Part shown: positions 7,077 through 43,710 of the stretch, piece after piece
Layout: the number at the start of each line of letters is the position of its first letter
Position numbering within the stretch: the stretch's first letter is position 1
From: Polyangiales bacterium
GTDB taxonomy: Bacteria > Myxococcota_A > Polyangia > Polyangiales > Ga0077539
Assembly (NCBI GenBank): GCA_044229975.1
Contig: JBGARZ010000009.1
Span: 91,947-155,946, forward strand
Direction: 5' to 3'
Length of the DNA stretch: 64,000 nucleotides
The notes under the pieces: model-generated
What the model was told of the DNA's origin: nothing
The model's database searches: none
The model's input: only the letters and a program-made list of their open reading frames with translations
Program-made: the position numbers and the translations under genes

Positions 7077-10000
7077 ATGATCAACCGATATGACTGCGCG
7101 CGGGTTCAAGAAGAGCTCGCGGCGCTGGCCGATGACGCCATCCCGGAAGAGGCCGCCGCGCACCTGGCCGGGTGCGACGACTGCCGCGACCTGCTCCACG
7201 ACGCGCGCATCGCCGCCCAGACGCTGCGAGGCGGAGCGGGCGCGGACTTCGTCGCGATGGACGGCGACGCGCTCGCCGCGAAGGTGCTCAGTGCCATCGA
7301 CGGGCGGATGTCGAAGGCGACGCCCGTGCACGGGACGCCGATGGCGGTGACCGTCGCGCAGACCTCACCCCCCAGCCCTCTCTCCCTGGCAGGAGAGGGG
7401 GAGCCGAAGGGAGAGGCACCTCTTCCCGTCGCTGTTCCTACGGCCGTTGCCTCTGCCTCTGGCTCCCCCTCTCCTGCCAGGGAGAGGGGGTTGGGGGGTG
7501 AGGTCTCGCCCCCAAAGGCGAGAGGTGAGGTCGCCCGTCGACGCATCGGCGCGTCCATCTGGGGCGCGGGGTTGTTCGCGGCGGCGGCGTCCGTGGCGGT
7601 CGTGGTGGTCGCGATGCGCGGCCCGTCGACGACACCCGCCAACGCGCCCGATGGCTCCTCGCCCGAGACGCCGCGCGGCCCCGTCGGGCCGTGGCACGCG
7701 ACGCTCGGCCGGGCGCTCGGCGCGGGCGTCGAGGTGAAGGCCGCGGGCGCGTCGGACTTCGCCGCGCTGCGTGAGCGCGGGGTCATCGGGCAGGGAGCGA
7801 CGGTACGCACCGACGCCCGCACCCGCGCCCGCATCGACCTCGACGACGGCACCGTGCTCGTCCTCGATCGCGCGACCACGCTGGTGCTCGACCCGAGCGC
7901 GCCACGCCACGCCCGCATCGTCGAGGGAACCCTCGTCGCCGACGTCGCCCACCGCGACGACGCCCCGCCCGCGGTGCTCACCACGGCGCAGGGAGACGTG
8001 CGGGTGCTCGGGACGAAGTTCGCCGTGAGCGCGTCCAACGATCACACCACCGTGCAGGTCACCCGCGGCGTGGTGCGGCTCGGCCAGGCGTCGAGCGACG
8101 GCGTCGAGGTGAAGACCGGCCAGGAGGCCGTGCTCGCCCGCGGTCAGGTGAGCGTGTCGCCGGCCGTCAACCTGGGCGGTCGCGTGGCGTGGTCGGAGCT
8201 CAACGCCCCCGACGACACCACCACCAGCTCCGGCCTCGGTGAGCTGCGCGCGCGCCGCCCCGGCAGCACCGCCGAACGCGATCAGGCCGTGCACCTCGCC
8301 GAGCATCAGGTGCGCGTTCGCATCGTCGGCAACGTGGCGCGCACCGAGATCGAGGAGGTGTTTCGCAACGACACGGGCAGCGAACTCGAAGGGCTCTACC
8401 GCTTTCCGCTGCCGCCCGAGGCGCAGGTGGAAGAGCTCGCCCTCGACGTCGACGGTCGCATGGAACCCGGCGCCTTCGTCGACCGCGACCGCGCGGCGGC
8501 CATCTGGCGCGGGGTCATCCACCACGCGGCGCCCAACACGCCGCCGCCGAGGGAGGAGTACGTCTGGGTGCCTGGTCCGTGGCGTGATCCGGCGCTGCTG
8601 GAGTGGCAGCGGGGTGGGCGCTTCGAGCTGCGGGTGTTTCCCATCCCGGCACGCGGCGCGCGGCGCGTGCGCATCGCGTACACGCAGACCATCGCGCCAT
8701 CGGGCGGCGGACTGCGGCGCTACGTCTACCCGCTGCCCCACGACCCGGGGGGGAGCACCCGCGTCGATCACATGAGCATGGACGTGCAGGTGCTCGGCCA
8801 CAGCGGGACGCAGCCCGCCCGCGTGCTGGGCTACCCCTTCGCGGCCGCCGACACCTCCGCCGCGGCCTCGCGGTGGACCTTCGCGCGCGACAACTTCACC
8901 CCGTCGGGCGACGTGGTGATGGAGTACGCGCTCGGCGACGCGACCGTGCCGGTGACGGCCTGGGGCTACGCCGAGCCGACCAACACCGAAGGGGCGTACG
9001 TGGCCCTCGCGCTGCGACCGCAGCTCCCGCGCTGGGGCGAGGCGAGGCCGCGGGACTACGTCTTCGTGGTCGACGCGAGCCGCTCCATGGTGGGCGAGCG
9101 CTACGCCCGCGCGACCCGTCTGCTCAGCTCCATCGTCTCGGAGATGGACCGCCGCGATCGGCTCACGGTGCTCGCCTGCGACGTTCGGTGCGTGGCGATG
9201 CGGGAGGGGATGGTCCCGGCGAGCGCGGAGGTGTCGCGGCAGGTGAGCGGGTGGTTGCAGGCGCGCGAGCCCGCCGGCGGGAGCGACCTCGGCGCGGCGG
9301 TGCGGGCGGCGGCGAGCGCGACGCGTTCGACCCCGGACGACCGCGACGTGCGCGTGGTGTACCTGGGCGACGGCGCGTCGACGGTGGGCCACCGGCGCCC
9401 GACGACGCTGGCGCTGGAGGTGACGACGGCGCTGCCCGCGCGCAAGGCGACGTTCACCGCGGTGGCGGTAGGAGCAGAAGCGGACACCACGACGCTCGCG
9501 GCGATGGCGCGGGCGGGTGGTGGGGTGGTGGTTCCGTACCTGCCGGGCGAGGCGAGGACGGGGGCGGCGCTCTCGGTGCTCGAAGCGACGTATGGGGCGG
9601 TGCTGCGCGACCCGGAGGTGACGCTGCCGTCGGGGCTGGTGTCCATGGCGCCAGCGCGACCCGACAACCTGCGCGCGGGCTCCGAGGCCGTCATCACGGC
9701 GCGGATGCTCCCCGGCGTGCGCGAGGTCGAGGGCGAGGTGGTGCTCCGCGGAACGGTCGCCGGCGAAGCCTTCGAGGCGCGCTACCCGATCACGGTGCGG
9801 GCGACGGAGGACGCGGGGAATGCGTTTGTTCCGCGGCTGTTTGGCGCGGCGCGCATCGCTGATCTCGAAGCGGGCGGCGAGCCCGGCGCGCGGGCCGAGA
9901 TGGTGGCGCTGTCGCAGCGGTTTCACCTGGCGAGCCGGTACACGTCGCTGCTGGTGCTGGAGAGCCCGGCGATGTTTCGCGCCTTCGGGGTGGAGCGCAC

Positions 10001-11450
10001 GGCGGGCGGCGTGACGTGGACGGGCGAGACCGAGGCGCTCGCGACGGGCGCCACGGCGACCACGGCCGATGCGAGCGGCGAGGAGGAGCAGCGCACGGCC
10101 GCGGAGGACAACGCATCGACCGAGGCGCTCGGCGGCCTGGCGGCGGCGCACGGCCGCGGAGGCGCGGCGAGCGAACGAGCGTCGACGGAGCCGGAGCCCG
10201 ACATGGTCGAAGCGCCCCGTCGGGAGAACAGCGCGGGGTACGGCCATGTCCAGCAGGTGCCGGCGACGACGACGACGATGCCGCGGCCCGCGCCGGTGGT
10301 CGCGGCGGCGCCGGCCGCGCCTGCGGCGATCTCACAGGCCAACAGCGGGATGCTCGACAACGACGACCTCCAGCGGAGAGGTCCGGCGGCGGCGGCGACC
10401 CGGATGCGTCGCGACGTGGCGGTCGATCGACCGTGGGCGGGAGGCGGTCGCTGGATGCGACGGACGTGGGTGCGTCACGCGGCGGTGAGCGCGCCGGTCG
10501 TGTCGGCGGAGTCGCTGCGGACGCGCATCGAGGCGGCGCGGCGCGCGCTCGGGGAGAACCCCAACAGCCGCGATCGTCACCGGGAGTTGTTCCGGTGGCT
10601 GTCGCTGGCGGGCGAGCTCGACGAGGCGGCGCGGGTGGCCGAGGCGTGGATCGCGCGCGACCCGCTGGACGCCGACGCGCTGATGCGGCTGTCGGACGTG
10701 GCGGCGCGGCGGGGCGATCGTCTGCGGGCGATGCGCTGGCTGGGCGGCGTGGCGGACGTTCGGCAGGACGACGCGCTGCTGCTCGACCGGCTGGCGATGA
10801 TGCACGCGCGGGCCGGGGACGCCGAGACGGCGTGCGCGTACCGGGTGGCGTCGGCGGAGTCGCGGAGCAGCGACGCGACGAAGGTGGCCGAGGCGGTGCG
10901 GTGCGAGCGGGCGCTGGGGCGCGAGATGTTCGCGGGGCGGATGCTCGATCTGTTGACGGACGCGGCGCAGCGATCGCGGGCGGAGTCGCTGGCGATGGGC
11001 AGCGGGGCGGACGTGTTCGCGAGCGTGCGCGGCGAGCTGCTGGCGCAGGCGACGTGGGACGTGGGGGTCGACCTCGACGTGGTGTTCATTGATCCGAACG
11101 GGGTGCGCGTGTCGTGGCAGGGCGGCCGCGCGGGGACGACGGTCAACGAGCCGATGGGCAACGGGCGCGAGTCGCTGGCGCTGGGTCGGCTGGCGACGGG
11201 CGACTGGCGGGTGGAGGTGGTGCGCACCGACCGCGAGGTGACGGGCGCGCAGGACGAGGACGACGCGACGCCGCGGACGGTGGTGCGCGGGAGCGTGACG
11301 CTGACGGCGCTGGGCGAGCGGCGGGTGCTGCCGTTTACGCTGACGGGGACGCGCGCACCGGTGGGCCGCGTGGTGGTGACGCGGGAGGAGCAGCTGGTGC
11401 CAGCGGGTCCGCCGCCGCCGGGCGCGCAGTTGGAGATGAGGCGCTGGTAG
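7077..11450 (+). CDS. Giant anti-sigma factor: zf-HC2, TM, FecR, VIT, vWA and TPR-like C-terminal region
   Basis: 1457 aa. N-terminus has the zf-HC2 motif (C..HLAGCDDC). A TM helix (IGASIWGAGLFAAAASVAVVVVAM) follows. Then a FecR domain (GATVRTDARTRARIDLDDGTVLVLDRAT), a VIT domain (VRIVGNVARTEIEEVFRNDTGSELEGLYRFPLP), a vWA domain (DYVFVVDASRSMVG...VVYLGDGASTVG), and helical repeats plus a beta-rich tail. Confidence 0.8.
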   Translation: MINRYDCARVQEELAALADDAIPEEAAAHLAGCDDCRDLLHDARIAAQTLRGGAGADFVAMDGDALAAKVLSAIDGRMSKATPVHGTPMAVTVAQTSPPSPLSLAGEGEPKGEAPLPVAVPTAVASASGSPSPARERGLGGEVSPPKARGEVARRRIGASIWGAGLFAAAASVAVVVVAMRGPSTTPANAPDGSSPETPRGPVGPWHATLGRALGAGVEVKAAGASDFAALRERGVIGQGATVRTDARTRARIDLDDGTVLVLDRATTLVLDPSAPRHARIVEGTLVADVAHRDDAPPAVLTTAQGDVRVLGTKFAVSASNDHTTVQVTRGVVRLGQASSDGVEVKTGQEAVLARGQVSVSPAVNLGGRVAWSELNAPDDTTTSSGLGELRARRPGSTAERDQAVHLAEHQVRVRIVGNVARTEIEEVFRNDTGSELEGLYRFPLPPEAQVEELALDVDGRMEPGAFVDRDRAAAIWRGVIHHAAPNTPPPREEYVWVPGPWRDPALLEWQRGGRFELRVFPIPARGARRVRIAYTQTIAPSGGGLRRYVYPLPHDPGGSTRVDHMSMDVQVLGHSGTQPARVLGYPFAAADTSAAASRWTFARDNFTPSGDVVMEYALGDATVPVTAWGYAEPTNTEGAYVALALRPQLPRWGEARPRDYVFVVDASRSMVGERYARATRLLSSIVSEMDRRDRLTVLACDVRCVAMREGMVPASAEVSRQVSGWLQAREPAGGSDLGAAVRAAASATRSTPDDRDVRVVYLGDGASTVGHRRPTTLALEVTTALPARKATFTAVAVGAEADTTTLAAMARAGGGVVVPYLPGEARTGAALSVLEATYGAVLRDPEVTLPSGLVSMAPARPDNLRAGSEAVITARMLPGVREVEGEVVLRGTVAGEAFEARYPITVRATEDAGNAFVPRLFGAARIADLEAGGEPGARAEMVALSQRFHLASRYTSLLVLESPAMFRAFGVERTAGGVTWTGETEALATGATATTADASGEEEQRTAAEDNASTEALGGLAAAHGRGGAASERASTEPEPDMVEAPRRENSAGYGHVQQVPATTTTMPRPAPVVAAAPAAPAAISQANSGMLDNDDLQRRGPAAAATRMRRDVAVDRPWAGGGRWMRRTWVRHAAVSAPVVSAESLRTRIEAARRALGENPNSRDRHRELFRWLSLAGELDEAARVAEAWIARDPLDADALMRLSDVAARRGDRLRAMRWLGGVADVRQDDALLLDRLAMMHARAGDAETACAYRVASAESRSSDATKVAEAVRCERALGREMFAGRMLDLLTDAAQRSRAESLAMGSGADVFASVRGELLAQATWDVGVDLDVVFIDPNGVRVSWQGGRAGTTVNEPMGNGRESLALGRLATGDWRVEVVRTDREVTGAQDEDDATPRTVVRGSVTLTALGERRVLPFTLTGTRAPVGRVVVTREEQLVPAGPPPPGAQLEMRRW
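7361..7506. repeat. MITE-like element with ~41-bp near-perfect terminal inverted repeats, inserted inside the anti-sigma CDS
   Basis: Left arm gacctcaccccccagccctctctccctggcaggagaggggg (7361-7401). Right arm ccccctctcctgccagggagagggggttggggggtgaggtc (7466-7506) is its reverse complement with about 3 mismatches. The ORF reads through it as a Pro/Ser/Gly/Glu-rich linker. Confidence 0.75.
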
Positions 11451-11466
11451 ACGGGCGGGTGGGGAC

Positions 11467-11487
11467 GGGGACGGTTTCAGCTTTTCA
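11467..11487. repeat. Left copy of a 21-bp inverted repeat (ggggacggtttcagcttttca) bracketing a ~3.5-kb insertion
   Basis: Its reverse complement occurs at 15011-15032 (gtgaaaagctgaaaccgtcccc), 21/22 identical. A 21-mer match is not expected by chance in 64 kb. Confidence 0.75.
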
Positions 11488-11571
11488 ACTTGTTAGGGCG
11501 CCGCAGCAAAGTGCTCGGGCTGAACGGGCGTAGGGTGTCCAGCGCTCGCCAGAGCTCCCAGGCAGTCGGGC

Positions 11572-12084
11572 ATGCAACTCGCGACCAACGTGACGAAGGT
11601 GTTGAAGGAGACGGCCGCCGCCTTGAAGGGCAGCGAACGTCGGCGGTTCATGGCGCGGACGGTGCGCGACCTGTTCGACGGCGTGATGAACCGAGCCGTT
11701 CGCGCGCTCGACTGGGACGAGCGGACGTTGCGCAAAGGCAAGAACGAGCTGCGCTCCGGGATCGAGTGCCTCGACGGTCGCTCCGGCGGCGGACGTCCGA
11801 CGGCGCAATCGCGACTGCCGAACCTGATGCGGGATCTGCGCGACCTCGTCGATGGTCAGAGTCAGACCGATCCGCGCTTTCAAACGCAGCGGCTCTACAC
11901 ACGCATCACGTCGGCCGAAGTCCGTCGGCAACTCATCGCGCAGAAGGGGTACACGGACGAGGAGTTGCCGTGTGAGGAGACGATCCGCGTCAAGCTCAAC
12001 GACCTGGGATATGGGCTGCGCGCCGTGGCCAAGACCAAGCCGAAAAAAAGGTCGCCGCGACGGACGCCATCTTCGAACAGATGA
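11572..12084 (+). CDS. Transposase orfA (N-terminal part of frameshifted ISAzo13-like transposase)
   Basis: 170 aa. Ends 3 codons after an A7 run (12043-12049, cgAAAAAAAgg). Confidence 0.6.
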   Translation: MQLATNVTKVLKETAAALKGSERRRFMARTVRDLFDGVMNRAVRALDWDERTLRKGKNELRSGIECLDGRSGGGRPTAQSRLPNLMRDLRDLVDGQSQTDPRFQTQRLYTRITSAEVRRQLIAQKGYTDEELPCEETIRVKLNDLGYGLRAVAKTKPKKRSPRRTPSSNR

Positions 12085-12794
12085 GTCGTGAGCGGGCGAC
12101 GGCCGCGCGTTCGCCCAACGTGCTGGAACTGTCGATGGACGCCAAGGCCGTCATCAAGGTGGGGGAGTTCTCTCGGTACGGCGTCAGTCGCGTGCTGGTG
12201 TTTGCGCTCGATCACGACCACGGGGCCGAGGCGAAGGTGACGCCGTACGGCATCCTGCTCACAGCCCACAACGAGCTGACGGTGTCTCTGGCGACGGGGC
12301 CCGTCACGGCGGACTTCATCGTCGATCGGATCGAGGCGTGGTGGTGCGCTCACCGGGCGCGCTTTCCGGAGGTCGATACGCTCCTTTTGCTTCAGGACAA
12401 CGGGCCCGAAAACCAGAGCCGTCGCACACAGTTTCTGTCGCGGATCGTGGCCTTTGCGCAGGCCCATCGGATCAACGTACGCCTCGCCTACTACCCGCCG
12501 TACCACAGCAAGTACAACCCCGTGGAGCGCTGCTGGGGCGTCCTCGAACAGCACTGGAATGGGAGCATCTTGGACACCGTGGAGACGGTCGTGAACTTCG
12601 CTCAGACCATGACCTGGAAAGGGGTCGCGCCCGTCGTGCAACTGGTCACCACGACGTACGCCAAGGGGATCTCGCTCACGCGTGCGGCGATGGCGAAAGT
12701 CGAGGCGCAGGTCCAGCGTCTCGCGGGCTTGGAAGCGTGGTTCGTGGAGATCCTCTGCGCGCCGAAGGCCGTGCGGGGCGACGGAGCGCACTGA
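12081..12794 (+). CDS. Transposase orfB (DDE catalytic part, in -1 frame relative to orfA)
   Basis: 237 aa with DHDHGAEAKVTPYG...LLLQDNGPEN...YYPPYHSKYNPVERCWGVLEQHWNG. Overlaps orfA by 4 nt. The -1 frame is open from the A7 run, so orfA and orfB together give about 400 aa. Confidence 0.6.
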   Translation: MSRERATAARSPNVLELSMDAKAVIKVGEFSRYGVSRVLVFALDHDHGAEAKVTPYGILLTAHNELTVSLATGPVTADFIVDRIEAWWCAHRARFPEVDTLLLLQDNGPENQSRRTQFLSRIVAFAQAHRINVRLAYYPPYHSKYNPVERCWGVLEQHWNGSILDTVETVVNFAQTMTWKGVAPVVQLVTTTYAKGISLTRAAMAKVEAQVQRLAGLEAWFVEILCAPKAVRGDGAH

Positions 12795-12835
12795 ACGCAC
12801 CAGCACCCCGACGAGAAAACTGCGACGCCCTTACT

Positions 12836-13131
12836 GGGAGCACCGGGTCTCGCCCGCGGATGGACTCCAGGTCGCCGATGAGGTCGCTGCCTCCGTAGAG
12901 GCCGATGCCGTAGAGGTTCTCGCCGCCGCGGTTGCGGAAGAGCGTCCCGCGCGCGGCGTTGACCAGCAGCCCGAAGCGCTCGCTCGCGGAGACCTCGTTT
13001 TCCACGAACTGCGTGTCGCCGCGGGTGCCGTTGAGGTGCATCCCGTCAGCCATGGTGACGCTCCCGCTCGACGTCACCAGGCGTGCCCATGAGGGTCCGC
13101 GAAATCGCTGTCGACAGTGACCATGGCGCAT
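12836..13131 (-). pseudogene. Possible 5' remnant of a gene truncated by the IS insertion
   Basis: Minus-strand ORF (MADGMHLNGTRGDTQFVENEVSASERFGLLVNAARGTLFRNRGGENLYGIGLYGG...) reads protein-like and has high GC. It runs uninterrupted into the right end of the IS, so its original C-terminus is missing. Confidence 0.3.
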
Positions 13132-13227
13132 GCGCCCACCATCAAGGCGTCACCCACCGGACCGCTGGTGACCGTAGCGAGAAGCGTTCTGGCGAGCGAG
13201 GCGGGGCGCGGCTCGATCAGGTGAGCG

Positions 13228-14541
13228 TTACCGAACCCGGATGATCCAATTCACGCTGGCGTTCAGGGGACGACTCTCGCCGCCACCCGCAGCCTGGACT
13301 GACACCGTAACGGGAAGGGGATGACGCGAAACACCCGCGTTACCGTTGTCGTGAAAGTTTCCGCCGGTCGAAAATCCATTTCGCATCTCGCTATTTCCAA
13401 TCGCTGTGCTCGAAAACGGATTTCCTCCCATCACCGCTGACGCCCCATGGTTGTGTGACCCGACCGCGCCAGACTGAACCGTGCCGACCGCGTCACCGCT
13501 CCGTCCTCCCGCTGCCATCGACGTGCGCCCGCCGCGATCTGGGTCACGTCCTGCGTTTAGATCTGCGCCGCGCAGGAAGTAGCCTCGGTAGTCAGGAAGG
13601 TTGAAGGTCAGAGCGTCTGGGGTGCCATGCGCGGTACCGATGGCCGTAAAAAGCCCAGGATAGCCGGTTCGAGAGAGGGGTCGGCCGTCGCAAAGCAACC
13701 AGCCCGAGGGAGGCGTGTCGCCCGCAAACGCAACAACTCCCCCGATCGGTGTCGTGACAGGTGGAGGCGCATCAACCTCCGCCGCCTCTGGGATGATAGT
13801 CACTAGAGCCCCACCCCCGGTCGAAACGACCAACTGCGCAGGGGGGGCAAAGATCCGCCGTCCTGGCGCAGCGCTCGGCGAACTTGCTACGCGTCGGCGA
13901 CACGACATTGACAGAAAGGAGTTGCCGATCATGGTCAGCTGACTCCTGGGTCCGGTAGGTTGATTCCGGCGCGCGTCCCAAAGTTCGCCAGCACACTGGA
14001 ATGCGTCATCGGGAATCACGCGAACGTCCTGAAGGCCGATGCCCGAAGTACCCGGGCCGTTATATGACAGAGCAAGCGTGACCAGATCCGATTCGCTCCC
14101 TGAAATGGTGCGCCTGAAGTGTAGTCCTTGTCGCTCCGCCTCGACGCAAGCTCGATAAGCTTGCATCGCATCAGGCGAGATGGTTTGGGTGAGCAGATCC
14201 TGCTCTTGCGCGGACATACTACGAGTGTCCGAGTTGGTGCACAGCGATCGCGCCAATGTCTCCAACTGAGCATACGACATACGAGCATCGACTCCGAAAA
14301 ACGGAGCGTCGACCATCACGCTTGCAGCGACGTTGGTTTGCGATAGTGACTGGTACGTCGAGCACATCGACTGCACCGCGGAGGAAGCTTGCTGCGCCGT
14401 ACTGCGGGTTCGGACGGAGTTGTACACCCCGAGCCGGAGTTGATCGACGCACGATGTATTGAGATTGTTTTGCGCACAGACCTCCACTGAGGAGATGAAT
14501 AGTGCCAGAGCTGTTACTATGGCGATTCCGAACTTGTTCAT
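13228..14541 (-). CDS. Secreted protein with C-terminal phage tail-collar domain (MdpB / tail-fibre-like)
   Basis: 437 aa. Signal peptide MNKFGIAIVTALALFISSVEVCAQ. C-terminus has the tail-collar motif (FAGDTPPSGWLLCDGRPLSRTGYPGLFTAIGTAHGTPDALTFNLPDYRGYFLRGADL...GSHNHG). GC is markedly lower than the flanks (many AT-rich stretches between 13.2 and 14.9 kb). Confidence 0.7.
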   Translation of the reverse strand: MNKFGIAIVTALALFISSVEVCAQNNLNTSCVDQLRLGVYNSVRTRSTAQQASSAVQSMCSTYQSLSQTNVAASVMVDAPFFGVDARMSYAQLETLARSLCTNSDTRSMSAQEQDLLTQTISPDAMQAYRACVEAERQGLHFRRTISGSESDLVTLALSYNGPGTSGIGLQDVRVIPDDAFQCAGELWDARRNQPTGPRSQLTMIGNSFLSMSCRRRVASSPSAAPGRRIFAPPAQLVVSTGGGALVTIIPEAAEVDAPPPVTTPIGGVVAFAGDTPPSGWLLCDGRPLSRTGYPGLFTAIGTAHGTPDALTFNLPDYRGYFLRGADLNAGRDPDRGGRTSMAAGGRSGDAVGTVQSGAVGSHNHGASAVMGGNPFSSTAIGNSEMRNGFSTGGNFHDNGNAGVSRHPLPVTVSVQAAGGGESRPLNASVNWIIRVR

Positions 14542-15010
14542 TCGCTACTCCGAAGATTGAGTGTTGCACTGGGAGCTTTGATCAGAGACCGACGCTAGTT
14601 GGTCGTCGCACAGGAGTCTTCAGCCGAGCGCACGGAATGTGATGTTGTGTGCACCGAAGTCGAGCACCATGCCTTTGGTATGGACTCAGCAGCCACCCGT
14701 AGCTCGGTGGTAGTCCGCTACGGGCTTCGCCGTCAAGTCCTCAAGTGAGCACGCGACCATCGCTCCTGACAAGCGAAAGTACCAAGTGCGTCTGAGCTTC
14801 TGGCGATACGTCGCAGCCGCAATGCTTCGCCCCCGCCACGCGCCACCTTCCCCCTACCTACGCGACAGCGACGATCGGCTCTTCGCCAACGTAACCCTAC
14901 CCATGTGCCCGCTTGGCGACGGCCGCTCCACGACACAATGATCGCTCTACCATTGGGTCTGGCGAGGCCGCGAAAACAGGTTCAGCTTTTCGCCTCTGCC
15001 CCAGCACAAC

Positions 15011-15032
15011 GTGAAAAGCTGAAACCGTCCCC
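15011..15032. repeat. Right copy of the 21/22-bp inverted repeat. A partial third copy (ggttcagcttttc, 14969-14981) forms a local hairpin with it
   Basis: gtgaaaagctgaaaccgtcccc is the reverse complement of 11467-11487. 14969-14981 can pair with 15013-15026 to give a 13-bp stem. Confidence 0.7.
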
Positions 15033-15038
15033 TCCCCC

Positions 15039-16268
15039 TCACCCGTACATCCACCGCCCGCGTTCGCCCGCCCGCCACTCGGCCATCCGCTCGCTCCCGA
15101 CCCTCATCAGCTCCTCCACGCTGGCCCCTGCGTCGATCCCCTCGCGCACCCGTTCGTCGCCGGTCAGCAGGTCCACCGCGGGCACGTCGTCGACGAACTC
15201 ATACCGCTCCGTCCGCCACCCGAAGCCCTCCATCCGTCGGCACGCCCGCAGCGCCGCCAAGTACGCCCGATACGGCGCAAACGCCCGCTCGTCCGTCACG
15301 TGCACCTGCACCCCCTGGCACGTCGCCCCCGCGTGCTTCTGGAACATCGGCCGGAAGCTCATCGCCCGCGCCGTCATCCCGCCACCGCCCTCGCTCATCA
15401 ACGCCGCCGCCAGCACCGCACCGTCCACCCACGGCGCGCCAAACACCTCGAACGGCCGCGTCGTCCCCCTGCCCTCCGACAGATTCGTCCCCTCCAACAA
15501 GCACCCGCCCGGATACACCACTGCCGTGTCCGGCGTCGGCATGTTGGGCGACGGCAGCACCCACAGCAGCCCCGTGTCCGCCCAGCGCATCGACCGCGCC
15601 CACCCCTCCATCGGCACCACCGTCACGTTCGCGAGCGACTCCTCCCGCGCGCGCCACGCCACCACCTCACCCAGCGTCAGCCCGTGCCGCACCGGAACCG
15701 CCTCCAACCCCACGAACGACCGCAACTCCGCCCGTTGCGGAGAGCCCTCCACCACGTCGCCACCCAGCGGGTTGGGCCGATCGCACACCAGCACCTCCAC
15801 TCCCTTCGCCGCGCACGCCCGCGCCATCAGCACGGCCGTCCACACGAAGGTGTAGTACCGCGAGCCCACGTCCTGGAGGTCGATGACCACGGCGTCCAAC
15901 CCGTCCAGCCACTCGCTCCGCGGCGTCAGCGACGAATACTCCGCCCCGTAAAGCGAGTACGCCCGCACACCGACTCCACCGCCGCCGTCCGCGACGCCCT
16001 CCATGTCCTGCGCCTCGCCGCCCACGCCGTGCTCCGGCCCGAAGAGCGCCGTCACCCGCGCGCCCGCCGCCGTCAGCACCTCCCGCGCGTGCCGCAGCTC
16101 CGACGTCACGCTCGCCGGGTGCGCCAGCAGCCCCACCGCGCGACCCCTCACCCGCCCGGTCTGCGCGGTCGCCAGCACCTCCAGGCCCGTTTGTACGCGC
16201 GCGCCCATCACAGCAACCCGTCGAGGATGCGCGTCAGCCGCTCGTCGCCGCCCGCGGGCGGTTCCCAC
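15039..16268 (-). CDS. DUF1343 family protein (NamZ-like exo-beta-N-acetylmuramidase family)
   Basis: About 400 aa. LQDVGSRYYTFVWT matches the DUF1343 'DIQDVGxRFYTY' signature. N-terminal extent is uncertain; an internal Met at residue 21 is possible. Confidence 0.55.
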   Translation of the reverse strand: MGTARGRRRAADAHPRRVAVMGARVQTGLEVLATAQTGRVRGRAVGLLAHPASVTSELRHAREVLTAAGARVTALFGPEHGVGGEAQDMEGVADGGGGVGVRAYSLYGAEYSSLTPRSEWLDGLDAVVIDLQDVGSRYYTFVWTAVLMARACAAKGVEVLVCDRPNPLGGDVVEGSPQRAELRSFVGLEAVPVRHGLTLGEVVAWRAREESLANVTVVPMEGWARSMRWADTGLLWVLPSPNMPTPDTAVVYPGGCLLEGTNLSEGRGTTRPFEVFGAPWVDGAVLAAALMSEGGGGMTARAMSFRPMFQKHAGATCQGVQVHVTDERAFAPYRAYLAALRACRRMEGFGWRTERYEFVDDVPAVDLLTGDERVREGIDAGASVEELMRVGSERMAEWRAGERGRWMYG

Positions 16269-21460: not shown

Positions 21461-21707
21461 GACGCCGGAGTTCGCGTGCCCCCATGAGGCGGGGTGCAGT
21501 CGCTCACTCCGGGCTATTTCAGGTCGTCACCCCGCGACGCGGGGTTGCAGAGAATCCGCTCGTCTTCACGCCTGTGATGGGTTTGTTGAGTGAGTGGCCG
21601 CGGACACGACCCTGACCCTGCAACCCCGCGTCGCGGGGTGACGACCTGAAATAGCCCGGAGTGAGCGACTGCACCCCGCCTCATGGGGGCACGCGAACTC
21701 CGGCGTC
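21461..21707. repeat. 247-bp near-perfect palindrome (about 90-bp arms, about 67-bp loop); family copy 1
   Basis: Arms 21461-21550 and 21618-21707 are exact reverse complements (gacgccggagttcgcgtgcccccatgaggcggggtgcagtcgctcactccgggctatttcaggtcgtcaccccgcgacgcggggttgcag). Lies between the convergent genes ending at 21416 (+) and 21736 (-). Confidence 0.9.
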
Positions 21708-39892: not shown

Positions 39893-39988
39893 GGCCGCAA
39901 GGGCGCCAGGGTCGCAAGGGAGGAACGAACAGCGCGACTCATCAACACCTCATCTCATCTTGTCCTTGCGACCCTGGCGTCCTTGCGG
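39893..39988. repeat. Hairpin of the same motif family as 2511-2634 (arms ccgcaagggcgccagggtcgcaagg / ccttgcgaccctggcgtccttgcgg, about 38-nt AT-rich loop)
   Basis: About 25-bp arms, 24/25 complementary. Shares the CGCAAGGGCGC[AC]AGGGTCGCAAGG core with 2511-2538. Confidence 0.7.
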
Positions 39989-43450: not shown

Positions 43451-43710
43451 GCCGCTGCGCCCGCGGGCCGGAGTTCGCGTGACCCCATTGCGGGTGCGTG
43501 CAGTCGCTCACGCCGGGCTATTTCACGGGGTCACCTCGCTGCGCGAGGTTGCAGGAACTCTCGATCGGCGATGGACGAGGCGACGGGTTGCTCGTTGAGA
43601 CCAGAGCTGCAACCTCGCGCAGCGAGGTGACCCCGTGAAACAGCCCGGCGTGAGCGACTGCACGCACCCGCAATGGGGTCACGCGAACTCCGGCCCGCGG
43701 GCGCAGCGGC
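43451..43710. repeat. 260-bp near-perfect palindrome; family copy 2 (same family as 21461-21707)
   Basis: Arms share the blocks ccggagttcgcgtg, tgcagtcgctcac and ccgggctatttca with copy 1. The inner stem differs (cacctcgctgcgcgaggttgcag versus caccccgcgacgcggggttgcag), but each copy remains self-complementary. Lies between the convergent genes ending at 43439 (+) and 43716 (-). Confidence 0.9.

Follow-up and report, generated by a model that had tools for sequence, protein, structure and literature searches.

The described systems closest to the one reported here are REP (repetitive extragenic palindromic) sequences, the bacterial interspersed mosaic elements (BIMEs) and the REP doublets termed REPINs (Bertels and Rainey, 2011, PMC3116915; Nunvar, 2010, PMC2817692; Ton-Hoang, 2012, PMC3333891), and the insertion of an insertion sequence (IS) into a REP-type repeat is likewise well known (Tobes and Pareja, 2006, PMC1525189; for ISPpu9, PMC12288879). 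The present work concerns a family of hairpins of comparable form in Myxococcota, and a 3.5-kb segment (11467–15032) that arms of this family bracket in 64,000 nucleotides of a Polyangiales bacterium (GenBank assembly GCA_044229975.1, contig JBGARZ010000009.1, positions 91,947 to 155,946); the whole of this stretch is called the window, positions given without a contig name refer to it, and contigs used for comparison carry L numbers. In a preliminary description two explanations had been offered for the 21-bp inverted repeats at the ends of the segment: either a pre-existing hairpin was split in two by an insertion, or the repeats are the ends of a larger mobile cassette that carries a tail-collar gene and in which an IS landed later. 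We find that the repeats are arms of a dispersed hairpin family of Polyangiales-type myxobacteria, and we hold with moderate confidence that two hairpin copies in the same orientation flank an insertion/deletion difference made by recombination between hairpin copies, the IS having come last.

The 21-mer GGGGACGGTTTCAGCTTTTCA occupies 11467–11487 on the forward strand and its exact reverse complement 15012–15032, so that the inverted repeats are as previously claimed apart from a right-hand copy that had been placed one base off, at 15011; the repeat extends inwards to 27 nt with 2 mismatches. A search for further 21-mers, proposed at the same time, was run: the window holds these two copies only, even when up to 3 mismatches are allowed (expected number in 100 shuffles, 0.00), and related arms occur in other genomes. 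Scanning the species-representative (GTDB) genomes with a degenerate 21-mer located three contigs of myxobacterial metagenome-assembled genomes, and scanning Joint Genome Institute (JGI) metagenome contigs with the family pattern located 17 more, in unrelated contexts and nine of them from one sample; no viral contig with the arm pattern was found. The arms of the family are ~30 nt long and the loop is variable; in most family loci the second arm lies inverted at a distance of 12–36 nt, and in ten full copies the arms measure 27–31 nt and the spacers 12–36 nt. The hairpins usually begin a few bases 3' of a stop codon. The arm consensus is GGGGACGGTTTCA-NN-TTTTCA-NN-TTGT-TAC, or in degenerate form GGGGACGGT(T/C)TCA-NN-TTTTCA-NN-TTGT(T/C/G)(A/G)C, and by inspection the arms consist of 8-nt units in direct tandem order, TCANNTTT-TCANNTTG, which follow GGGGACGGT and show no internal self-complementarity. 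Covariation between the arms is seen at three base pairs, the partner arm changing alongside, and the arms are strictly conserved across genomes of 57–76% GC; the two full copies that were folded proved very stable, at -71 and -77 kcal/mol (z = -9.6 and -12.3). The variation among arms (L021–L038; positions 14–15, 22–23 and 28–29) falls mainly on two dinucleotides (AG, GC, AC or GG) for which the partner compensates; at positions 28–29 three copies have TG opposite CA, giving G.U pairs on one strand only. A search of Rfam over 11000–15500 at E ≤ 1 gave no match. The family appears to be undescribed for Myxococcota, where a literature search found no paper describing such repeats.

By its form, the family comes nearest to the REP doublets (REPINs) of PMC3116915. 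Like these, it is extragenic and dispersed, with two inverted conserved arms around a variable spacer that form a long hairpin; its copies stand just after stop codons, sometimes in clusters of arms (as in L031 and L036), show no target duplication and are kept at orthologous sites across related lineages. Unlike REPINs, the arms are here built of the tandem 8-nt units TCANNTTT rather than of small palindromes, and the host belongs to Myxococcota; from the short contigs with copies, neither a GTAG-type head nor association with a REP-associated tyrosine transposase (RAYT) could be demonstrated. One family locus was seen in the 64-kb window and one in 21 kb of L007, and at least nine contigs of a single metagenome sample carry the family. 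In one further contig (L030:169–300) a tandem (GGCCCCCC)n run lies directly 3' of the family hairpin.

The history of the locus is most readily approached from its relatives, which were located by tracing homologues of the right-flanking gene to their contigs; this gene encodes a NamZ (DUF1343) exo-beta-N-acetylmuramidase and converges with an anti-sigma-like gene on the left. A family hairpin follows the NamZ stop codon by 6–18 nt in four lineages (the window; L007; L008–L015 with L021; and L046–L049), and the NamZ proteins of the hairpin-bearing relatives are 86–96% identical to that of the window. In L007 (GCA_044228995.1) the order is NamZ stop codon (TGA), a 43-nt hairpin, and the anti-sigma stop codon, without the insert; the hairpin (L007:11172–11214) reads GGGGACGGTCTCAAGTTTTCAAGTTGT-CGAG-AAGACCGTCCCC. 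Comparison of window and L007 DNA by BLAST gives 96.5% identity in the left flank up to 11468 and 91.7% in the right flank from 15006. The empty site that the preliminary description had advised looking for, with a single hairpin between the anti-sigma and DUF1343 genes and no insert, is thus found in L007. Because this empty site already holds the hairpin arms, the repeats were not brought in as the ends of a cassette; so far as the sequences compared here can tell, the hairpin after NamZ predates the insert. In the more distant NamZ relatives L016, L044 and L045 a Metallophos gene lies downstream and the hairpin is absent, and because another gene follows NamZ there, without a hairpin, these contigs give no ancestral state. 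NamZ of L007 (L007:10001–11165) appears in the gene calls in two pieces, a protein of 286 aa and an open reading frame (ORF) of 64 aa, a split that suggests a frameshift or a sequencing error. In the Logan contigs L008–L015 and L046–L049, which come from 12 sequencing runs and two NamZ lineages, the contig 3' ends lie in the post-NamZ hairpin or a few bases before it, as would be expected if assembly at k=31 broke on a nearly perfect palindrome of 31 nt or on a repeat present in multiple copies.

The two 21-mers of the window are probably not the two halves of one such hairpin. Directly after NamZ, on the reverse strand, lies a hairpin of its own (hp1, 14972–15032), consisting of arm A (from 15032 to 15006, holding the right-hand 21-mer), a loop, and a degenerate arm a' (from 14991 to 14972). 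This third arm (GAAAAGCTGAACCTGTTTTC), which the preliminary description did not mention, is identical to the canonical arm at 15 of 20 positions, pairs locally with the right-hand 21-mer, and shares with the other arms an exact core of 11 nt together with the 'GC' dinucleotide specific to this locus. Covariance model R1 matches 15032–14972 over its full length (31.7 bits, E=7.6e-5), which is its top match in the window and outscores the hairpin of L007; the fold of hp1 has an energy of -43.4 kcal/mol. Arm A is orthologous to the post-NamZ hairpin of L007, L008–L015, L021 and L046–L049. The transcription of NamZ is probably still terminated by hp1. On the NamZ mRNA strand the stem comes with UGUUUUC, but in the minimum-energy fold this tract pairs with GGGGACGG, and a terminator consensus scan does not call hp1, the loop of which is longer than 8 nt.

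The left-hand 21-mer belongs to arm A' (11467–11495 on the forward strand; from outer to inner end GGGGACGGTTTCAGCTTTTCAACTTGTTA, with its last base, a C, at 12834 beyond the IS), which contains the exact 21-mer and matches the family arms. Alignment with L007 takes in the outer part of this arm and the spacer between it and the stop codon of the anti-sigma gene. With the IS removed, arm A' aligns at 31 of 33 positions to the 3' arm of the hairpin in L038, a contig in which a beta-helix gene, with 90.5% DNA identity to the gene remnant of the window, ends 9 nt before a full family hairpin. Between the IS-free window and L038 the alignment reaches as far as GTGCTCCC and begins again at GTAACAAGTTGAAAAGCTGAAACCGTCCCC, leaving out 83 nt that comprise the last nine codons of the gene, its stop codon, the 5' arm and the loop. 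Most simply, then, the left 21-mer is the 3' arm of a hairpin (hp2) that belongs to the beta-helix gene, and the right 21-mer is the 5' arm of hp1. Two hairpin copies fit better than one because A and a' score as a complete hairpin and A' lines up with the 3' arm of L038. Of the first explanation offered earlier, the part that a hairpin pre-existed at this site stands (four lineages and the empty site of L007), whereas the part that one hairpin was split in two is probably too simple, given the partner arm a' and the match to L038.

The IS is a later arrival. It spans 1335 bp on the forward strand (11496–12830, rather than the 11492–12834 first assigned to it) and is present as a single copy in the window; its identification as ISAzo13-like holds, with PF07592 matches at E=1e-9 and 4e-58 (38 and 197 bits, cut-off 26.9) and matches to NF033519. 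Its terminal inverted repeats are 11 bp long (GGGCGCCGCAG at 11496–11506 and GGGCGTCGCAG at 12820–12830), and it is flanked by a duplicated TTA (11493–11495 and 12831–12833) that is read directly from the sequence. Excision of the IS with one TTA gives ...CAACTTGTTAC, the inner end of the family arm consensus. Because of the TTA duplication, and because excision restores the consensus arm, the IS arrived late and by simple insertion, at the inner end of arm A'; the later landing of the IS that had been proposed is supported by this duplication of its own. The transposase is split at an A7 run (12043–12049) into ORFs at 11572–12084 and 12081–12794 (-1 frame); the NF033519 halves score 73 and 177 bits (model positions 3–149 and 160–385 of 387), neither half reaching the cut-off of 200 bits, as the gene is in two pieces. 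Slippage, in transcription or in translation, could account for the split, as could a copy that is dead or a sequencing error in the homopolymer. Target duplications in the ISAzo13 family measure 0–4 bp (ISfinder). The element resembles that family in its transposase models, its short terminal inverted repeats starting with GG and its 3-bp duplication, and differs in that its transposase is interrupted by a frameshift at A7 instead of being one uninterrupted ORF. IS1397 is a further IS that inserts into REP sequences. As in such cases the IS of the window has an extragenic palindrome as its site, in this instance the inner end of one arm; it differs in being of the ISAzo13 family, and as one insertion was seen, no target preference is claimed.

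What lies between the IS and hp1 is of mixed origin. The region from 13.2 to 14.9 kb has a GC content of 0.54–0.64 vs 0.72–0.77 in the flanks, confirming by windowed GC the low value reported earlier, and apart from the segment between the repeats the 64 kb hold no substantial island with GC below 0.66. Codon usage, which together with GC had been proposed as a check of foreign origin, divides this region: by GC at third codon positions (GC3) the tail-collar gene is foreign (0.62, vs 0.89–0.93 in host genes; overall GC 0.60), whereas the adjoining gene remnant is host-like (0.94). The interior is thus a mosaic of a late IS, a broken native-type gene and one horizontally acquired gene, and not the cargo of a transposon. 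A further 430 nt 5' of the collar gene (14542–14971, GC ~0.60) are counted, by composition, with the non-native segment; they show no similarity to L002–L006, to L007 or to the plasmid collection, and the 2.2-kb islet as a whole likewise has no match in the plasmid collection. A scan for promoter and terminator consensus sequences yielded nothing exceeding shuffles.

The remnant (12834–13223, reverse strand; phmmer, tblastn), noted previously as a probable gene remnant, is real and represents the 3' end of a gene for a beta-helix lipoprotein of ~550–570 aa. All of its phmmer matches fall within the C-terminal ~70 residues of Beta_helix/NosD proteins of 534–569 aa, and by tblastn it corresponds to residues ~347–390 and ~479–561 of a 569-aa homologue, so that it has lost ~345 codons at the N-terminal end, part of the interior and the final ~9 codons. 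The gap, at 13092–13097, would be due either to the loss of ~88 internal codons or to the remnant aligning with an adjacent beta-helix repeat. Pfam and NCBIfam searches with the remnant alone gave only a non-significant NosD match (E=0.2). That the remnant might be an N-terminal fragment starting from the ATG at 13053 was ruled out, as the homologues match with their C-terminal ends. In L037 (L037:560–916, 1.5x coverage) the 3' end of an AcrB-type gene on the reverse strand is joined to the same beta-helix 3' fragment near the breakpoint of the window; this contig was set aside as possibly chimeric.

The collar gene (13228–14541, reverse strand) encodes the 437-aa tail-collar protein that had been predicted (PF07484 Collar, E=6.5e-19, 68 bits against a cut-off of 24), a putative Sec signal peptide being judged by eye only. 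This is followed by an N-terminal domain (residues ~30–250) and by a gp12-like collar and receptor-binding module (263–437) that aligns over its whole length with the receptor-binding domain of the T4 short tail fibre protein gp12 (PDB ID: 1OCY; E=3.5e-10), keeps the C-terminal GG-E(T/S)RP-N motif and places H363 and H365 on the HxH of gp12, a zinc site. Foldseek likewise ranks gp12 first; it also gave Ig-like matches, from which no conclusion was drawn. The AlphaFold monomer has a mean pLDDT of 56, with a poor C-terminal module, and models the N-terminal domain, at modest confidence, as a helical bundle plus a beta-sandwich; the ~235 residues that follow the signal peptide are found in only five proteins of a large database. 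It is thus the collar and head module that the protein shares with gp12, from which it differs in its signal peptide, in its rare 235-residue N-terminal domain and in the lack of a phage tail or tailocin cluster. No phage genes were found near the collar gene, the neighbours being the IS, the gene remnant, NamZ and the anti-sigma gene, and viral contigs contain relatives of the C-terminal module only (33–35% identity). Besides gp12, the nearest described proteins are bacterial ones of the 'microcystin-dependent protein' or tail-collar kind (COG4675). The product is most likely, by homology, a secreted, trimeric protein that binds surfaces or carbohydrates and not part of a phage.

The nearest homologues of the collar protein (84% and 68% aa identity) occur in other contexts, DNA homology being confined to 13214–14566; the homologues in L002–L006 lack the 21-mer, and homology ends within 25 nt of the gene. 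Judged by composition and by these contexts, the collar gene is horizontally acquired. The 84% homologue (L002:1–3800) lies in a low-GC islet (0.58–0.68, in a contig of 0.71 GC) beside an IS3-type rve_3 fragment, and this islet also holds, on the opposite strand, a 295-aa gene without an assigned function.

The reading to which we give moderate confidence brings these parts together as follows. After NamZ would stand hp1, with arm A and its decayed partner a'; hp2 would natively have followed the beta-helix gene and, after the 83-nt deletion, kept only its 3' arm A'; and the low-GC acquired collar gene would have come to abut the beta-helix remnant. Homologous recombination between hairpin copies may then have integrated a hairpin-bearing circle into hp1 in Campbell fashion or, alternatively, the reverse event, a deletion between hp1 and hp2, may have taken place in L007; the ISAzo13-family IS would have inserted last, at the inner end of arm A', duplicating TTA. 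We infer repeat recombination because the segment lies between same-orientation repeats here, while L007 has a single repeat without the segment. This is also the likeness to Campbell-type integration and deletion; the difference is that the repeats are only ~60–75 bp and both damaged, and that the circle and the direction would be deduced and not observed. Several points weigh against this reading. Among the contigs compared, no relative was found with the beta-helix gene between NamZ and the anti-sigma gene, so that insertion here and deletion in L007 are equally open. Nothing that would account for the junction of the low-GC gene with the beta-helix gene, whether an integrase, an att site or the end of an IS, turned up at 13210–13227 or near 14971. 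Arm a' is badly decayed, lacking the inner 8–10 nt and carrying four C-to-T changes, and may derive from elsewhere; the identity of A and A' over 21 nt also fits two halves of one hairpin; and the window, with a single family locus in 64 kb, gives no sign of a high copy number in this genome.

The identity of A and A' (21 of 21 nt, both with the rare 'GC' variant) is indeed what would be expected had a single hairpin, A-loop-A', been split by a 2.2-kb mosaic of collar gene and remnant that entered the loop by illegitimate recombination before the IS arrived, a history to which we give a distinctly smaller chance. A single hairpin, no more, separates NamZ from the anti-sigma gene in L007, and the window-specific DNA begins and ends inside the hairpin, both as this history requires; but the third arm a', which R1 scores with A as complete, would have to be given an origin ad hoc, and this history makes a coincidence of the hairpin that follows the remnant's parent gene in L038 and of the agreement of the window with L038 less 83 nt. 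It is rather unlikely that the hairpins are portable recombination sites for swapping, capturing and losing gene blocks, the collar islet being a captured block and the arms being conserved through recognition by a dedicated protein. Such a role would account for the strict conservation of the arms at 57–76% GC. In favour of recombination between hairpin copies, in this form as in the reading that we prefer, are the flanks of the hairpin, around which all four combinations of left (NamZ or beta-helix) and right (lipoprotein X or anti-sigma) gene occur: NamZ and lipoprotein X in L021 (L021:558–631), beta-helix gene and lipoprotein X in L038 (L038:876–949), NamZ and anti-sigma gene in L007 (L007:11172–11214), and beta-helix remnant and anti-sigma gene at hp2 of the window (11467–11495). 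L021 and L038 are short metagenome contigs with a hairpin of 74 nt that is nearly identical in both, and an assembly collapse could lie behind the difference in their left flanks, a point that counts against our reading as well.

That the 21–30-bp repeats are the ends of a non-autonomous transposon (a mobile insertion cassette, MIC, or a large MITE, short for miniature inverted-repeat transposable element) with the collar gene as passenger, the short hairpins being its internal deletions, is improbable. Dispersed arms with conserved ends and variable centres are MITE-like, and, as in mobile insertion cassettes and MITEs with passengers, inverted repeats bracket a gene with no transposase acting on them; the arms' GGGG start also resembles Tn3-family ends, a resemblance not backed by any test. 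Unlike such cassettes, however, the segment has no target duplication, the GGGAC and TCCCC flanks extending the palindrome as in other copies; the empty site already has the hairpin, which also follows NamZ in four lineages; the collar homologues of L002–L006 have no arms, so that cargo and repeats do not move together; a truncated gene of native type is part of the cargo; and kb-scale spacing of arms is seen in none of 37 loci. The cassette explanation of the preliminary description accordingly fails on the empty site, the flanks and the homologues. Delivery by the IS, in which the ISAzo13-like element brought in neighbouring DNA as a composite or by one-ended transposition with a surrogate end near 15005, is no less improbable. 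The IS does adjoin the segment, the inverted repeat can be extended into the IS end (55 nt at 75%), and the collar homologue of L002 also lies beside an IS fragment; yet a 3-bp duplication borders the IS itself at either end, so that it moved in alone, the extension is only ~60% matched inside the 27-nt arm and overlaps a', and the fragment in L002 is of another family (rve_3). The 55-nt extension was for these reasons taken as chance and rejected as a second IS end; integron attC-like ends (GTTAGGG) were likewise rejected, the candidate spanning the IS end with no test in its support. The least credible history is an assembly artefact, with the contig mis-joined at a multi-copy IS and the 21-mers not truly 3.5 kb apart. 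An independent Logan contig of the same strain (L001) breaks inside the IS at 12805, leaving the junction of IS and anti-sigma gene without a second witness; but the same contig confirms the order NamZ, hp1, collar gene and remnant at 100% identity, TTA stands on both sides of the IS, the join restores a consensus arm, and L007 independently places NamZ beside the anti-sigma gene.

The convergent flanking genes previously assigned were confirmed by Pfam. On the left, the anti-sigma-like gene (7077–11450, forward strand, stop codon TAG at 11448–11450) encodes 1457 aa with FecR, VIT and VWA domains; on the right, the NamZ gene (15039–16205, reverse strand; PF07075 and PF20732) has its stop codon 6 nt from the hairpin. 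Two other kinds of palindrome were seen elsewhere in the window. A ~180-nt palindromic element with arms of ~55 nt (GGGTGCAGTCGCTCAC..GGCTATTTCA..GTCACC..), which looks MITE-like and was picked up as a weak match by the hairpin covariance model, occurs at 21492–21676 and 43493–43668, and a third kind of long hairpin, with arms of GCAAGGG-type units, occurs twice (2505–2642 and 39896–39987).

Taken by itself the locus is routine, a small foreign gene and an IS having accumulated at a palindromic intergenic repeat, and it cautions against taking inverted repeats around an islet as transposon ends. What appears to be new is the hairpin family, with its conserved 30-nt arms, its persistence at orthologous sites, its apparent position at synteny breakpoints and its tendency to break short-read assemblies. 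If the family proves to be present in high copy number in whole genomes, it would mark where rearrangement hot spots and gaps in assembly lie in these genomes, which are large and poorly assembled, and would be a candidate REPIN-like system outside Proteobacteria and Cyanobacteria, where those elements were defined.

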